DNA of 64,000 bases from Gemmatimonadota bacterium (lineage in GTDB: Bacteria > Gemmatimonadota > Gemmatimonadetes > Gemmatimonadales > GWC2-71-9). Shown one piece after another: positions 2,711 to 38,732 of the stretch. Position 1 is the stretch's first letter. The number at the start of each line of letters is the position of its first letter. The stretch is taken from the NCBI GenBank assembly GCA_039586365.1, contig JBDHKN010000003.1, positions 1-64,000 of the forward strand, in the 5' to 3' direction. A program made the position numbers and the translations under genes. The notes below the pieces were generated by a model. The model worked only from the letters and a program-made list of their open reading frames with translations, did no database searches and was not told the origin of the DNA.

Positions 2711-5503
2711 CTATTCGACCCGGAGTGCCTCCATCGGATCGACGCGCGATGCGCGCCGCGCGGGCAGGTAGCTGGCCAACAGAACTGCGGCTGCGAGGCA
2801 CGGGGCAACCACGCCAAACGTCACCGGATCCACCGCACTCACTCCGTAGAGCAGCCCGCTCATGAGTCGGGTCAGCCCATAGGCTGCCGCCAGTCCCACC
2901 GCCACACCCAGCAGGGCGAGCACCACACCGAGCTGGAGTACCATTGCGGCGACCTTGCCGGCGTTGGCACCCAGGGCGATCCGCACGCCGATCTCGCGCG
3001 TGCGTTGGCTCACCACGTAGGACACCACGCCATACACACCCACGACTCCCAGCAACAGCGCAACCGCGGCGGCGAGGCCCAACATAACCAAAGTGAAGGA
3101 GGTACGCGCCAGGGAACTACGCAGTACGTCGGCCATGGTCTGTACCCGCGATAGCGGCAAGTTGGGGTTCACCGCCCATATCGCATCTCTCACCTCGTTC
3201 AAGAAACCTTCGGCTCCCACTAGGCTGCTGCGTACCACGAGCCACATCGTCCGCGGCATGAAGATCGCACCGCCCCGCACCTCGGGCCAGAAGTCCTCGA
3301 GCACCATGGGCCAGTAGACAATGCCGACGGGGTCCTGCATGATGCCGTCGTCACGCACGTCGCCCACGACGCCGATGATCTCCCGCCAGTTCCCAGGTCC
3401 GAACCCGGTGCCGACGCGCTTTCCGATAGCGTCAGCCGGGTTGCTCCAGTATTCTCGCGCCAGGTTCTCGGTGACCAACACGACCCTCGATCGCGCGTGA
3501 ATGTCCCCCCAAGTGAGTGACCTGCCGGCAACGATGTTGTTGCCCATCGTCTCGGAATAGCCGGCCCCGATCCACTTGAAGCGGCGGGTCGCAGGCAGTT
3601 GGCCTTCGGGCAGGGGGAATTCCTCCACGAATATGGGGTCGAACCCGGCCATGCGGTCCATCGTAATGGAGCTGGAGAGCCCAACCGAGGCGACACCACC
3701 CACGGCCTCGATCCGGTGGGCAATCGCCTCGAAGGTGAGCGCAACTTCGTCTGGTTCAGCGACTTGCGCGCTAGGGATCGTGAGCAGCACGGCGAGCACT
3801 TCGTCAGCGGCCCTGAAACCCGGCGTCACCTGGCGGAGAGCCTGGACAGTCCGGATCATGAGTCCGGACCCAACGATGAGCACTAGTGCCAGCGCTATTT
3901 GGCCCACCACCAGCGCGTTCCGAGTGCGGTGCCGCTCGCGGCCCGAACTCGAGCCACGACCACCCTCTTTCAGCGCCTGCACTAGGTACCCACGTCCCCA
4001 GCGGAATACCGGGAACAGGCCGAAGGCAATCCCGGAGAGAACCGAGATACCCAAAGTGAAAGCCAGCACAGCGGGGTCCAGTGAGATCTCGTCGAGCCGC
4101 GGGACGTTGCCGGGCGCAATGGCCGTAAGCAGGCGCAGCCCGCCGTAGGCCAGGCCCAGTCCGAGTACACCGCCGAGCACAGCTAGCATAGTGCTCTCCG
4201 ACAGGTAGAGTCCCGCAATCCGGCGCCTGCCAGCCCCCAGTGCCGAGCGAATGGCCATCTCCTGTTCCCGGATCTCGGCTCGCACCATGAACAGGTTGGC
4301 GACGTTGGCACAGGCGATGAGGAGCACGATGCCTACCGTGCCCAGCAGCACCCAGAGCACCGTACCGACGTCACCCACTATCTCTTCGCGCAACGGACGG
4401 AGAACGGGCGCGGCCTGCGCTTCCTGCAGCAGTTCGAGGGTCATGCCTCCAGGAAACTTCTCGACGGCCAGAGCGACTAGGCGTGTCAGGTCAGCTAGCG
4501 CTCCCTCTATGGTGACTCCGGCTTTCAGCCGCGCGATACTCCGGAAGGTGAAATTGCCCACGAACAAGGTGGACCGGTCAAAGCGGAGGGGTCTGTAGAT
4601 GTCAGGAGCGAACTCGAGGAACCGGAAGTCCCGCGGCATTACGCCGATCACCTCACGGGTCATGTCGCTCACGTGGAGTGTTTGGCCTATGACATCCGGA
4701 TCGCCGCCGAACCGCCTTTGCCAATAGTCGTGACTCAGAATGATCGTAAGAGGAGATCCCGGTGTCTCATCCTCCTCAGTGAACGTGCGGCCCAGAACGG
4801 GCTGGACGCGGAGAGTCGGCAGCGTGCCGGCTGTCACGAGCACCGTGGAGATGCGCTCGGGGCCGTCGGTACCCACCACGGTGGCTTGGGCCTGGGTCCA
4901 CAGGCCGACGCTCTCGAAGGCTCTTGCCTCGTCCACGTAGGTGAAGTGAAGAGCCGGGGATTGCGGGAACAGATCATCGGCTCGCCCGTCCGCTTGGAGA
5001 CCAGGTGCCCGGTTCCACACTGTAACGAGCTGCTCGGCGTAGTCGTAGGGCAGGGCCTTGAGCAAGATGCCGTTAACCAGCGAGAAGATCGCAGTGTTCG
5101 CCCCGATGCCGATCGCCAGCGTGAGGATGACCACGGCGGTGAATCCCGGGGCCCGGCGCAAGCGGCGGAGCGTGAGGCTGAGTCCCTGCAGCGCATCCGC
5201 GGCCGCGTTCCACGCTCCTCCCTTGTGCCGCAACCGGATCTCGGACTGCTCGACCCGCCGATCGATAGCTGAGCGGGCATGCTTGCGTTTGGAGCGCGTG
5301 ATCTCGGCCGCCAGTTCCTGCCAGTCGCCTACGTGATCGCGGGCGCGGGCATCGGCGTCCTTCTCAGAGGCACCGGCCGCGATGGCACCCCGGTAACACT
5401 CGTCCACCTGTGCGGCAATCTCCTCTATGATGTCGCTCTCTACGGGACCCATTATGTCCGGGAGTTCCAGCCGCTCTCTCACGTACCTCTTCCAGTCAGG
5501 CAT
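2711..5503 (-). CDS. ADOP-type duplicated ABC transporter permease (MacB/FtsX domains) with N-terminal extension
   Basis: [66 protein letters not shown]. Confidence 0.95.
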   Translation of the reverse strand: MPDWKRYVRERLELPDIMGPVESDIIEEIAAQVDECYRGAIAAGASEKDADARARDHVGDWQELAAEITRSKRKHARSAIDRRVEQSEIRLRHKGGAWNAAADALQGLSLTLRRLRRAPGFTAVVILTLAIGIGANTAIFSLVNGILLKALPYDYAEQLVTVWNRAPGLQADGRADDLFPQSPALHFTYVDEARAFESVGLWTQAQATVVGTDGPERISTVLVTAGTLPTLRVQPVLGRTFTEEDETPGSPLTIILSHDYWQRRFGGDPDVIGQTLHVSDMTREVIGVMPRDFRFLEFAPDIYRPLRFDRSTLFVGNFTFRSIARLKAGVTIEGALADLTRLVALAVEKFPGGMTLELLQEAQAAPVLRPLREEIVGDVGTVLWVLLGTVGIVLLIACANVANLFMVRAEIREQEMAIRSALGAGRRRIAGLYLSESTMLAVLGGVLGLGLAYGGLRLLTAIAPGNVPRLDEISLDPAVLAFTLGISVLSGIAFGLFPVFRWGRGYLVQALKEGGRGSSSGRERHRTRNALVVGQIALALVLIVGSGLMIRTVQALRQVTPGFRAADEVLAVLLTIPSAQVAEPDEVALTFEAIAHRIEAVGGVASVGLSSSITMDRMAGFDPIFVEEFPLPEGQLPATRRFKWIGAGYSETMGNNIVAGRSLTWGDIHARSRVVLVTENLAREYWSNPADAIGKRVGTGFGPGNWREIIGVVGDVRDDGIMQDPVGIVYWPMVLEDFWPEVRGGAIFMPRTMWLVVRSSLVGAEGFLNEVRDAIWAVNPNLPLSRVQTMADVLRSSLARTSFTLVMLGLAAAVALLLGVVGVYGVVSYVVSQRTREIGVRIALGANAGKVAAMVLQLGVVLALLGVAVGLAAAYGLTRLMSGLLYGVSAVDPVTFGVVAPCLAAAVLLASYLPARRASRVDPMEALRVE

Positions 5504-32909: not shown

Positions 32910-33099
32910 CGCCGGCTGCCACCTGCGTGGATGCCGAGGAGCGTGAGCTAATCGTTCCTTATTTCCTCCACGGGATCCAACCGAGTAGCTCGGAGCGTCG
33001 GAATCGCCGTGCTGATGAGGTGTTCAAGTCCCAACAACTTGGTGCGTAAGCCAGGTCCGAAGTAGACTAGAAGGTCCACCACATGATGCGGAGATCGAG

Positions 33100-34236
33100 A
33101 TGGCCGTCCCGTTGCCTCGTCTAACCCATTTGGCTCAATTGGTCGTCGCTTCTACCCTGGCGGCGGCCTTGTCCTCAGACACGACTGGACAGGGTCCCGA
33201 GCTCCGTTGGAGCTACGATACTCACGGCTGAATCTTCTCCACTCCCGCGGTCGCGGGAGATCTACTCTTCATCGGTTCGTGTGCCGGCAGCTTCGTGGCG
33301 TTCGACAAGCTCGCGGGCGACGTTCGCTGGAGCTACGACATTCGCCAGGATGGTGATCAGTCGTACTTCCACGGGGACTTCCACCTCACCGACGAGCTGG
33401 TGCTTACGGCGAGTGATGGACAGGGCTTCGGAACGGTGTACGCGTTCGAACGGAAGACCGGATCTGTCCGTTGGAGCCACACCGAACAGGAGAACATCCC
33501 GTCTACCGTCGTCCCAGGTGGGGAGAGTGTCTACGTAGTTACACAGCCCGACCAGGTCCTCGCTCTCGATCTCGCATCGGGGGATCTCCGCTGGAACTTC
33601 AGAACGCAAGGAGATCGCATCGGTAGGACGCGGTTGGTCTCGTCGCCGGTGGTCGATGACGAGCTCGTGTACGTGAGCGGTCGGGACGGGATTCTCTATG
33701 CCCTTGATGCCGCAACTGGTGTTGTAGAGTGGAGGGTCGACTTCCAGACTCCGGCAATAACGTCTCCAGCCATGTGGCGTGGGGGCTTATACGTCGGCAC
33801 AGGTGCTGGGAGAATCGTGCGGGTAGATGCAGCGACGGGGACGGTTGAGGCTGAAGCCGAGATCGGGAGTTCGCTGTACGTAGAATACGGACTGAGTGCG
33901 AGTGATGACGGGGTCTTCGTCTACTCGGGGATTGCACCGGGAACCTCGGCGCCCGCCGAGCTGAATGTATTTGCTACATCGTTGACCGAGGTGCGCTGGC
34001 GCCACGACAACGAGCGGGGATGGAGTACACCGCGCGCATATAGCTGGGGCGAGTACATCGTGGCAGGTGATGTGGCTGGGAATATCTATCTGTTCCGGCA
34101 TTCCGACGGTTCCGTAGCACGGAGCTTCAGGATCGACGGTGAGCCCCGGGGGATTGGAGGTGAGGGACACATGTTGTACATCGGTACCCTCAACGGGATG
34201 CTCTACGCATACGAGATGGAGAACGGCGGCAACTAG
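33100..34236 (+). CDS. Secreted PQQ/BamB-like beta-propeller protein with in-frame UGA at codon 44 (candidate selenoprotein)
   Basis: ATG 33100 (GGAG upstream) is in frame with the ORF from 33295. It reads as a signal-like segment, then LRWSYDTHG-UGA-IFSTPAVAGDLLFIGSCAGSFVAFDK, a complete first blade. Later blades have W.F...SSP.V....VYV...DG.LYALD..TG. Confidence 0.8.
33242..33259 (+). promoter_or_regulatory. Candidate bacterial SECIS element
   Basis: CTCCCGC-GGTC-GCGGGAG hairpin starting 10 nt after the UGA (33229-33231), with the loop starting with G. Confidence 0.65.
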
Positions 34237-35710: not shown

Positions 35711-36067
35711 GTGGGTGTCAAAGCCGCCGCTCCCGACCTCAAACCGCAGTGGTTCCAGATCTTACTGGCCCTGGCCGACCAGGATCTCCACGGCTACGCA
35801 ATCATGAAGGAAGTGCTGGAGAGGACTGAGGGACGCATGAGGCTCTGGCCTGCCATGCTGTACGGGTCGCTGAAGCGCATGCTGGAGTCGGGGTTGATCG
35901 TCGAAGTCGAACCTCCTGCACGTTCAGGGGACGATCAGGTCGACAGACGCTTCTATCGCATCACTCGGCTCGGCAAGCGGCGCCTGGCCGAGGAGGTGGA
36001 ACGCATGGCCGACTACGTCGCGGCGGCACGGGCCAAGCGTTTACTACACAAGGGAAAGCAAGCCTGA
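35711..36067 (+). CDS. PadR family transcriptional regulator
   Basis: [38 protein letters not shown]. Confidence 0.93.
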
Positions 36068-36068
36068 G

Positions 36069-38732
36069 GTGCTGGTGCTGCACGGCATCCTGGAACTGTT
36101 GACCTGGCTCTTCCCGCCCCGTTTCCGCAGGGAGTACGGACGGGAGATGCGGCATCTGTATGGGCGAATCCTCGTCGATGAGAAGCGGCGGCATGGCGCT
36201 ATCGCAGGGCCGTTGGTCGTGCTGGCAGCAGCCCTTGACGTGCTCCGCAGAGCGCCGGTCGAGTGGGGGAGTCTGCTGTTGGACTGGTGGTCGCACAGTA
36301 GGCGGGTATCTCGCCGCCGATTTGGAGTGAGACTCATGGCAACGATTCAAGATGCGTGTTACGCAATCCGCACCCTCGTCAAGCGACCGGGATTCACGGC
36401 CGCGGCTGTGCTCACCTTGGCGCTGGGTATCGGTGCCAATACGGCCATCTTCAGTGTGGTGAACTCGATTCTGTTCCGGCCGCTTCCGATTGCCGAAGCG
36501 GACAGAGTAGTCACGCTGTGCGAGACGAATCCTGCCGTAGCGGCGTTCTGCGTTGCCTCCCCTCCAAACGTGGCGGACTGGTCGGATCAAAGCACCACAT
36601 TCGAGAACTTTGGGCTTGCGCGCGGCTGGCCGTTCATAATGCAGACAGGCGCAGGTGTTGAGGGCATTTCGGGTGGCATCGCTACACCTGGCTTCTTCCA
36701 CGTGCTCCGGTACACACCTCACCTCGGCCGGCTGTTCATTGAGGCAGAGCTACGAGAGGGCAACAACCGTGTCGTGGTATTGAGCTATAGCATGTGGCGC
36801 AGTGAGTTCGGCAGCGATGCAAGCGTCATTGGTCGTACGATCACGCTGGACAACGAGCCCTATCAGGTTATCGGAGTGCTCGGCCCCGAAGCTAAGGCGC
36901 CGCAAATGGAGGACTTCGAGCTGTGGGCGCCGCTGCACTTCAACCCGAGGGACGAACAGGAACGGGGATGGCGGGGGTTCAGGACTTTCGGGCGGCTGCG
37001 TGATGGTATCTCGCTAGCGGAAGCGCGGAGTGACATGGCAACCATCACGGGCCGACTGGCACTGCAGTACCCTGAGACCAACGCGGGCTGGGGCATTAGC
37101 ATCATACCGCTGCGAGACCATGTGGTCGGGTCGACGCGTCCCCTGCTTCTCACCTTCCTGGGTGCAGTGGGGTTTGTCCTGCTGATCTGCTGTGCGAACG
37201 TCGCCAACCTACTGCTTGCGCGGATCGCCGGGCGACGCAGGGAACTGGCAGTACGCGCGGCGCTTGGTGCGGAGCGTAGCAGACTCGTGCGATTCCTAAT
37301 GGCAGAGAGCGCTATACTGTCGCTGGTCGGCACTGCGGTTGGCATCGTGCTCGCCTTCGTCACAGTGAAGCTGTTCGTCGGGCTTGCACCCGGCAACATT
37401 CCGCGCCTGGATGAAGTGAGCATCGATGGCCGCGCCTTGGGTTTCGCGGTGCTCGTTGCAGCGGTCACTGCCGTCCTATTCGGACTGGTGCCCGCACTCC
37501 AGGCATCGAAGCTCGATCTTGGCCAGACACTGAAGGAAGGCGAGCAAAAAAGCACGGACAGGTCCAGCCTCAGGCTTCGGAATGCACTGATCGTGTCGCA
37601 AGTGACTCTCGCAGTGGTGTTGTTGGTGGGCGCGGGACTCTTGATGCAGAGCTTCGTGACGCTACTCAGGTGGCAGCCAGGGTTCGATCGAGGAAACCTG
37701 CTCACCGTATGGTTACTTGGATCGTCGGGCAAGTACAGCAACGGGGACGAAGTTGTTGCGGTGTTCGAACAGGCAGCCGCTGAAGTGAGCGCACTACCCT
37801 CCGTCATTTCGGTGGGTGCAACTTCCGCGGGGCCCTTGTTCGGCGGTCGTGAGACCGGTGAGTTCGTGATACAAGGCTGGGCGGAAGCTGGCTCGGACAG
37901 TCCAGTAGCGAGGTGGTACGACGTAGACACCGGTTATTTCCCGACCCTCGGCGTACCTCTCCTTGCGGGGCGACAATTCACCACGAGCGATGACACACGC
38001 GCTCCAGAGGTTGCAGTCGTCAACGAAACCATGGCGCAGCGCTACTGGCCTGGCCAAGATCCCCTGGGTAGGCAGGTCACTTACGAAGGGAGGACGATGA
38101 TTGTGGTTGGGGTGGTAGGTGATGTACAGCCATTCTTGAAGGGTGCCCCCGTCGAGCCGGAGATCTACTGGCCCAAACGGCAGTCACCGCGATGGGCGAC
38201 GTTTCTCGTCATCAGGACAAACAGCGATCCGCTGGCCACGGTGCGGACGGTGCGCGACAGGCTTCAGGCTGTCGATCCCGACATGCAGGTGTCGGGGTTC
38301 GCGACGCTCGATGAGCTTGCCGGACGTCAGTTGGTTCGGCCGCGCTTCAACATGTTTCTGGTGGGTGCGTTCGCACTACTGGCTATGGTGCTGACTGCCG
38401 TGGGTGTCTACGGTGTCGTGGCGTACTCTGTGGCGCAACGCACACAGGAGATCGGTGTCCGTATCGCTCTCGGCGCGCACCGCGGTGCCATCGTGCGATG
38501 GGTCATCGAAAAGGGCATAGGGCCTACGCTGGTAGGTTTACTGCTCGGCTTGGGTGGTGCGTTCGCGATCACTCGGGTGTTGGCGAGTCTGTTGTACGGT
38601 GTGCGGCCCAGAGACCCGCTGACGTTCGGGGCAACCGCACTGTTCGTAGTCGTGGTTTCACTGCTTGCGAGCTACGTTCCGGCCTGGCGGGCCACGAAGG
38701 TCGATGCGGTGGTGGCGCTGAGGCAAGAGTAG
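36069..38732 (+). CDS. ADOP-type duplicated ABC transporter permease
   Basis: [13 protein letters not shown] extension, [44 protein letters not shown]. Confidence 0.95.

Follow-up and report, generated by a model that had tools for sequence, protein, structure and literature searches.

The window, which is the whole 64,000-nucleotide stretch of Gemmatimonadota DNA that was analyzed, carries on its forward strand a gene (33100..34236) whose frame, read from the ATG at 33100, contains a single internal TGA at codon 44 (33229..33231) and terminates at the TAG at 34234-34236. With the TGA read as selenocysteine (Sec), the product has 378 amino acids and is a predicted exported, eight-bladed PQQ-repeat beta-propeller. 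Gene callers report only a truncated form, a 313-amino acid open reading frame with a GTG start (33295..34236). An earlier sequence-only reading of this DNA had described the same ATG, the TGA at codon 44 and a 378-residue product that continues into the 313-residue frame, and all of this was confirmed. A likely ribosome-binding site, GGAG (33090..33093), is located 6 nt 5' of the ATG, and both the GGAG and its spacing are identical in locus L093, which is 85% identical to the window. The first 29 residues (33100..33186) resemble a signal peptide, with a hydrophobic stretch and, in the window copy, no lipobox; a strand comprising residues 34-40 (ELRWSYD; 33199..33219) lies 5' of the TGA and in the structure model is likely the closing strand of the propeller. 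Features 3' of the TGA, again on the forward strand, are a bacterial SECIS-type hairpin (33242..33259; loop at 33249-33252), Cys61 (TGT; 33280..33282), which is the predicted partner of Sec44 and the only Cys codon of the window copy, a blade-2 motif of Phe90-His91 and Asp106 (33367..33417), and Arg350 of blade 8 (34147..34149), which adjoins the Sec-bearing loop.

A contig from another public run (X6) that spans 33015-33272 had nearby differences, none of them listed at the TGA, and the sole RNA contig spans 33069-33218 and ends 5' of the TGA. The TGG at codon 44 that the sequence-only reading had named as contrary evidence was absent from the public contigs examined, with the TGA unchanged in the one other run; the majority of these contigs are short or derive from relatives. 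No promoter-like or terminator-like sites were found around the propeller gene, and its neighbors in the window, a DUF885 gene and a beta-lactamase-fold gene, have no link to selenium. Two genes downstream, at 35711-38732, lie what we take from their sequences to be a PadR-like regulator and then a long ABC permease.

The TGA was compared among 137 sequences, namely the window and 136 homologous loci that were 31-85% identical, with DNA drawn from 56 genome loci and the best 80 of 324 metagenome loci. Position 44 was excluded from the search patterns; one pattern included Cys61, and the 38 loci without that exact pattern still have Cys61. Codon 44 was TGA in 135 of the 137 sequences and Trp in none, the two exceptions being L082, where a one-base insertion gives TGGA, and L146, a contig that starts downstream of codon 44. 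Cys61 was present in all 137 sequences and in all 55 members of a wider alignment. The counts given here and below for codon 44, the hairpin, selB, Acidobacteriota, Pyrinomonadaceae and genomic context include G067, G498, G887, G900, G968, G984 and G999, which are flagged as unpublished; the conclusions are independent of them. All 56 best protein database matches (29-100% identical) begin past residue 44, most of them exactly at residue 45, and among named homologs the nearest, at 46-49% identity, belong to Gemmatimonadota. In 401 genomes of the Acidobacteriota sample, a profile found 15 matches in 13 genomes, and 11 of the 15 had one TGA. The four matches without a TGA were L184, L185, L186, and L188, of which L185 is a generic repeat. 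L184 (G625:C2:6372-6647) has Ala at positions 44 and 61 and keeps the Phe-His pair, and the SECIS hairpin is absent; its genome has selB, and a quick tree places it, long-branched, within the Sec forms. L184 is one natural control, a Sec-free variant in which a similar peptide was kept but the hairpin is gone, and it is a single case.

Pairing of Sec and Cys in homologs is the usual selenoprotein criterion in the portion of PMC13188914 covered here. Two distant homologs, P0154 and P0176, have a natural Cys44, known from protein sequence alone; they were the only two Cys-bearing homologs, both fall in the unresolved part of the quick tree, and two region-limited protein searches for additional Cys44 forms found none. 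The expectation that homologs would carry TGA or Cys at position 44 thus held, with 135 of 137 TGA, two distant Cys forms and one derived Ala form. Origin of the TGA from a Trp codon (TGG) by a nonsense mutation, the caveat raised there, is very improbable, as the TGA is common to homologs down to 31% identity and none has Trp. Two TGA-bearing copies (L180 and L187) were present in one genome, G581, with hairpin loops unlike GGUC, and two longer members, L078 with about 520 residues after Sec and P0251 with 583 amino acids, suggest C-terminal fusions.

Conservation of the coding type was found on both sides of the conserved in-frame UGA, which is itself a criterion for selenoproteins. The 11 codons 5' of the TGA were free of stops in 90 distinct sequences, with variation peaking at third positions, and Trp37 was TGG in all 135 loci. 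An ATG was present 25-62 codons upstream in 119 of the 135 TGA loci; in 113 of these, 10 or more residues within a 12-residue window were apolar or small, and a loose lipobox pattern was found in 67 of the 119. The part before the TGA is constrained as coding sequence and contains a signal-like stretch and a propeller strand, so it is not a gene of its own that stops at the TGA. It is very improbable that the TGA is a true stop, as in a pseudogene or in a two-part gene with re-initiation, or that it encodes Trp or Cys. In 62 of 135 loci codon 45 is GTG and could serve as a start, and tRNA variants that place Cys at UGA exist and would permit decoding as Cys. However, codon 45 is ATC in the window and a non-start codon in about half of the loci, the conserved upstream part contains the export signal and the propeller strand, and a nonsense mutation would not persist down to 31% identity. 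Decoding as Trp is further opposed by termination of the frame with TGA in 30 of the 135 loci, while Trp37 is always TGG.

The stem of the hairpin, CTCCCGC-GGTC-GCGGGAG, starts 10 nt past the TGA and its loop begins 17 nt past the TGA, with a predicted energy of -13.9 kcal/mol. The perfect 7-bp stem and GGTC loop that had been pointed out from the sequence were therefore found where they had been placed. The bSECIS constraints are a loop of 3-9 nt, a stem of 4-16 bp, a G in the first two loop positions and a spacing of 16-37 nt, with an energy of at most -7.5; the bSECIS-like test used here was our own implementation. The window hairpin (loop 4, stem 7, GG, 17 nt, -13.9) falls within the four consensus constraints given in the covered portion of PMC13188914. 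Its stability in a 42-nt window corresponded to a z of -2.75 (4 of 200 shuffles), and longer windows gave z values of -1.24 and -0.69. The loose bSECIS-like test was passed by 652 of 4000 random TGA sites of the window's genome, while the exact form, with a GGTC loop in the same register and a 7-bp stem, occurred at 4 of 164,754 TGA trinucleotides in the genome. By itself, the window hairpin is moderately unusual and modest evidence; the weight comes from the homologs.

Among 98 distinct 45-mers, many of which are kin and not independent trials, the loop was GGTC in 90, AGTT in 7 and GGTT in 1. The silent first loop base was a purine in 98 of 98 vs. 47 expected from synonymous recodings, and 60 of the 98 passed the bSECIS-like test vs. 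a null of 24 +/- 4, with a maximum of 37 in 60 synonymous recodings. The mean hairpin energy was -12.3 vs. -8.5 in synonymous recodings of the same peptides, and the silent pair 18:27 was C-G in 76, T-G in 10 and T-A in 7 sequences. Thirty-eight of the 98 hairpins failed the strict folding test, and 23 sequences had an A-C mismatch at pair 19:26, which adjoins the closing pair. Six further distant TGA loci also form a hairpin in the same register. Conservation of the hairpin in homologs, which the sequence-only reading had named as a check, was observed, and these comparisons indicate that the hairpin is selected as RNA.

The genome from which the window derives (5.44 Mb, 86% complete) contains selA, selB, selD and tRNA-Sec, all above curated cut-offs, so that the Sec machinery, which the sequence-only reading had left to be sought outside the window, was found in the genome. 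The tRNA-Sec has a UCA anticodon and a G before CCA, the latter a feature of serine-type tRNA identity, and the selD gene carries its own in-frame TGA. Another selenoprotein candidate of this genome (G000:C125, TGA at about 97001, forward strand) reads YCVV-U-NYEPRA with a hairpin behind the TGA and is presumably SelW/Rdx-like, to judge from its motif; motif scans for further selenoproteins in this genome gave mostly noise. In the 50 of 56 host genomes that were assessed, selB was above the cut-off in 46. Enrichment of selB in host genomes was dropped as an argument, the baseline being 136 of 151 Pyrinomonadaceae genomes, and the count is a matter of consistency only.

Escherichia coli fdhF is the prototype of a bacterial selenoprotein gene with a SECIS element inside the open reading frame. 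The window gene resembles genes of this type in its in-frame UGA, the small loop that begins with G, the 17-nt spacing, the energy of the hairpin, the selA, selB, selD and tRNA-Sec of its host, and the existence of Cys-bearing homologs. Because the TGA and the GGUC hairpin are conserved and the four components of the machinery are present, the gene very likely encodes one selenoprotein; decoding of the TGA at 33229-33231 as Sec, in one intact gene rather than two, is on this comparative evidence highly probable.

The gene family differs from known selenoproteins in that neither a propeller fold nor the U-x16-C motif occurs among the 119 families of the covered portion of PMC13188914. Table 1 of that 2026 catalogue, which includes the families of Haft and Tolstoy 2025, lists no propeller, in agreement with the earlier statement that this fold was not an established selenoprotein family; the comparison covers neither the unvalidated candidates of Deng et al. 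2026 nor most subscription journals. Nothing relevant on PQQ, propeller or BamB was found in SelCysML or in the main text and part of the supplement of BSepDB, and the portions of the deep-Sep supplements covered held no relevant entry for these terms (of seven "pqq" strings, the four examined lie inside sequences). The main texts of PMC2398784, PMC5029168, and PMC11227280 likewise had nothing relevant on PQQ and propeller. No NHL-repeat selenoprotein was found in the main-text portions covered of these three papers and of PMC13188914, and no relevant paper was among the literature listings searched. No selenoprotein model was among the matches of the window protein in NCBIfam (June 2026). Annotation nearly always shows the family as a BamB-like protein cut short and lacking its export signal, since most search methods start from Cys forms and these are rare. 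The gene family is real and conserved and is very probably decoded with Sec; its fold is not listed in the catalogue of PMC13188914, as far as the latter was covered, and its function is proposed below.

The structure model of the window protein is an eight-bladed propeller with a mean pLDDT of 86.8, residues 1-29 being under 50. The best fold match was BamB (Z of 37.8, 17-22% identity), followed by tetrathionate hydrolase and WD40 proteins, with tetrathionate hydrolase as the third-best match (Z of 35.4, rmsd of 2.7, 330 residues aligned, 15% identity). BamB (YfgL, TIGR03300, Pfam PQQ_2) is likewise an exported eight-bladed PQQ-repeat propeller, but the window protein scored 117.4 against the TIGR03300 cut-off of 285.2 and by score is not BamB; the window family differs also in its invariant Sec, Cys, His, and Asp and in a patchy distribution unlike that of a housekeeping gene. 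PQQ-dependent alcohol dehydrogenases (TIGR03075) share the repeat family and the fold, but the window protein has 378 amino acids vs. about 560-600 and scored 65.2 vs. a cut-off of 480. Tetrathionate hydrolase of Acidithiobacillus (PDB 6l8a, 7cqy), compared by fold alone, is similarly an exported, PQQ-free, eight-bladed propeller enzyme of chalcogen chemistry, but it is cysteine-independent and acid-dependent, has insertion loops and is only 14-15% identical.

The residues conserved in the family are consistent with a site on one face of the propeller. The family motif is W-x5-G-U-x4-P-x9-G-S-C, and Cys61, Gly63, Phe90, His91, and Asp106 were invariant in the 55 diverse members; Arg350 was conserved in 51 of 55 and Arg312 in 43 of 55. 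Positions R1-2, R1 and D-1 of WD40 blades lie on the top face, according to the covered portion of PMC3419727. By our own mapping of the repeat register, residues 44, 46, and 61 correspond to these three positions; in blade 2, His91 falls on R1 and Asp106 on D-1, and in blade 8 Arg350 falls on R1. The register and the model together predict that the blade-2 motif is on the same face as Sec44. In the model, Ile45 stands alone as a bridge residue and Ser60 is the last residue of strand B, a pattern that recurs at Ile220/Thr234, so that residue 44 would face residue 61; the model agrees with the earlier placement of residues 44 and 61 on the same propeller face. Among 217 generic repeats, the equivalent of Cys61 covaried with the equivalent of residue 44 in its own blade (z of 3.7) and in the next blade (z of 4.9), which is compatible with either neighbor and gives no preference to a pair within one blade.

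The claim that Cys61 stands alone held for the window copy only, since most Acidobacteriota homologs have four extra Cys that form two co-occurring pairs. Cys in blades 7 and 8 occurred together in 84 of 112 near-complete bodies, in blade 7 alone in 8 and in blade 8 alone in none, and this pair is a geometry of neighboring blades that was counted against the same-blade 44-61 pair. The extra pairs are probably structural and lie in equivalent loops, which, together with best-matching folds that are the non-catalytic scaffolds BamB and WD40, would suit a structural or regulatory Se-S bond that clamps blade 1 of a BamB-like binding scaffold or ties synthesis to selenium supply. Such a role is quite improbable: Cys would suffice for it, yet Cys44 forms are rare (2 family proteins), and the conservation of His, Asp, and Arg points to binding of a small molecule in a pocket.

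The mechanism we propose starts from the TGA and hairpin, which are conserved across two phyla. SelB would bind the hairpin and bring Sec-tRNA to the UGA, as expected from established SelB biology, and the N-terminal peptide is predicted to export the protein to the periplasm or the surface, many Acidobacteriota copies being presumably lipid-anchored. Sec44 would be the last residue of the loop that precedes strand A of blade 1, and Cys61 the first of the B-C loop in that blade; the pair, likely located on the top face in the model, could switch from selenolate and thiol to selenenylsulfide and back. A small anionic substrate would be held in a pocket walled by His91 and Asp106 (blade 2) and Arg350 (blade 8). 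In the weakest step, the substrate would be a selenium or sulfur species of the envelope, for example an oxidized low-mass selenol or thiol. Given Sec, a redox role of Sec44 and Cys61 is somewhat more probable than its absence, and we lean slightly toward the whole chain, in which Sec is inserted, the protein is exported and the Sec44-Cys61 pair acts by redox cycling on a small anion that contains selenium or sulfur.

The same residues could instead bind a metal or metalloid. Sec44, Cys61, His91, and Asp106 are four invariant potential ligands on one face, and a CusA-like efflux gene is near some loci (7 loci, E of 1e-10), so that an envelope chaperone, sensor or sink for Cu, Zn, Hg, or As is conceivable, though doubtful. 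The conserved Arg350 and Arg312 fit an anion better than a cation, the CusA-like neighbor remains at 2 of 134 loci when 50% identity is required, and L184 retains Phe-His yet loses Sec and Cys together. The invariant His and Asp near Sec also suggest a Sec-His-Asp hydrolase or transferase in which Sec is the nucleophile, for example in S-S, Se-S, or Se-C cleavage, and Cys61 is resolving. The rank of tetrathionate hydrolase, which is eight-bladed and acts on sulfur chains, among the fold matches points in this direction, but its identity to the window protein is low, many unrelated propellers score nearly as high, and the enzyme is cysteine-independent and uses Asp325 (covered portion of PMC10859504); we regard Sec as the nucleophile as unlikely. 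Most characterized prokaryotic selenoproteins have a thioredoxin-like fold and a short redox motif (PMC13188914, covered portion). The favored Sec44-Cys61 redox site, with Sec and its partner Cys 17 residues apart in a propeller, would if true be a different design of a selenium active site, located outside the cytoplasm.

The family is diverse, with dozens of clusters at 50% identity, and its distribution is patchy, the gene being found in 5 of 151 Pyrinomonadaceae genomes. A search of 60 kin genomes found no ortholog and generic PQQ repeats only, and an N-terminal profile gave no matches in 400 genomes of the window's own phylum, with 12 candidates scored per genome and weak misses possible. 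The ESM Atlas contained only unnamed Acidobacteriota clusters of the truncated length and generic PQQ clusters.

The commonest neighbors at the homologous loci were a cupin, a class I methyltransferase, a LysR regulator, senA, senB and a peroxiredoxin-like gene. The neighboring LysR scored 251.2 vs. the cut-off of 250 of a selenium-associated model, and senA and senB were both above cut-off. Of the 55 genome loci, 15 have senA and 15 have senB within 6 kb, 16 have the selenium-type LysR, and 25 have at least one of the three (at least 50% identity to the queries). The linkage to senA and senB resembles the sen cluster of selenoneine synthesis; every case is at a locus titled Pyrinomonadaceae, three arrangements occur, and the loci are from kin that are not independent. 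No match to senA or senB was found in the 64-kb window or in its genome. The selenoneine pathway needs only SenA, SenB, SenC and hercynine in the covered portion of Kayrouz et al. (bioRxiv 10.1101/2022.04.13.486033), and "PQQ" is absent from the main text of that preprint as far as covered. Proximity to senA, senB and LysR may mean that the genes are co-regulated as a selenium island, not that they serve one pathway.

Recycling of selenium compounds by the protein would explain why the gene repeatedly neighbors senA, senB and the selenium-type LysR. In its fullest form, which we put forward as speculative, this would be the first family of beta-propeller selenoenzymes, with an exported Sec-Cys redox site on the top face of a BamB-like scaffold and a His-Asp-Arg pocket. 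Its task in soil and sediment bacteria would be to recycle or salvage selenium compounds of low mass, for instance oxidized selenoneine, in the cell envelope. The family offers a testable approach to two questions: why selB is retained in about 90% of the Pyrinomonadaceae genomes, and what selenium chemistry takes place in the envelope beside selenoneine synthesis.

A block that recurs in Pyrinomonadaceae, starting some 6 kb ahead of the propeller gene, consists of a divergent selenium-type LysR, a class I methyltransferase, senA, senB and a cupin, followed by the propeller gene, with examples among L041-L087 (L047, L048, L049, and L087). A selD match was found in 2 loci only, so senC lies mostly outside the block. 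At one locus (L137:3596-4201, forward strand, TGA at 3830-3832), an exported peroxiredoxin-like gene with GNW-U-PYC (U-x-x-C), a known kind of selenoprotein, adjoins the propeller gene, and related matches were present in 11 of 134 loci. Eight of 134 loci, among them L056:7089-7970, L050, L115, and L117, have MddA (methanethiol S-methyltransferase), above its cut-off, as a neighbor of the propeller gene.
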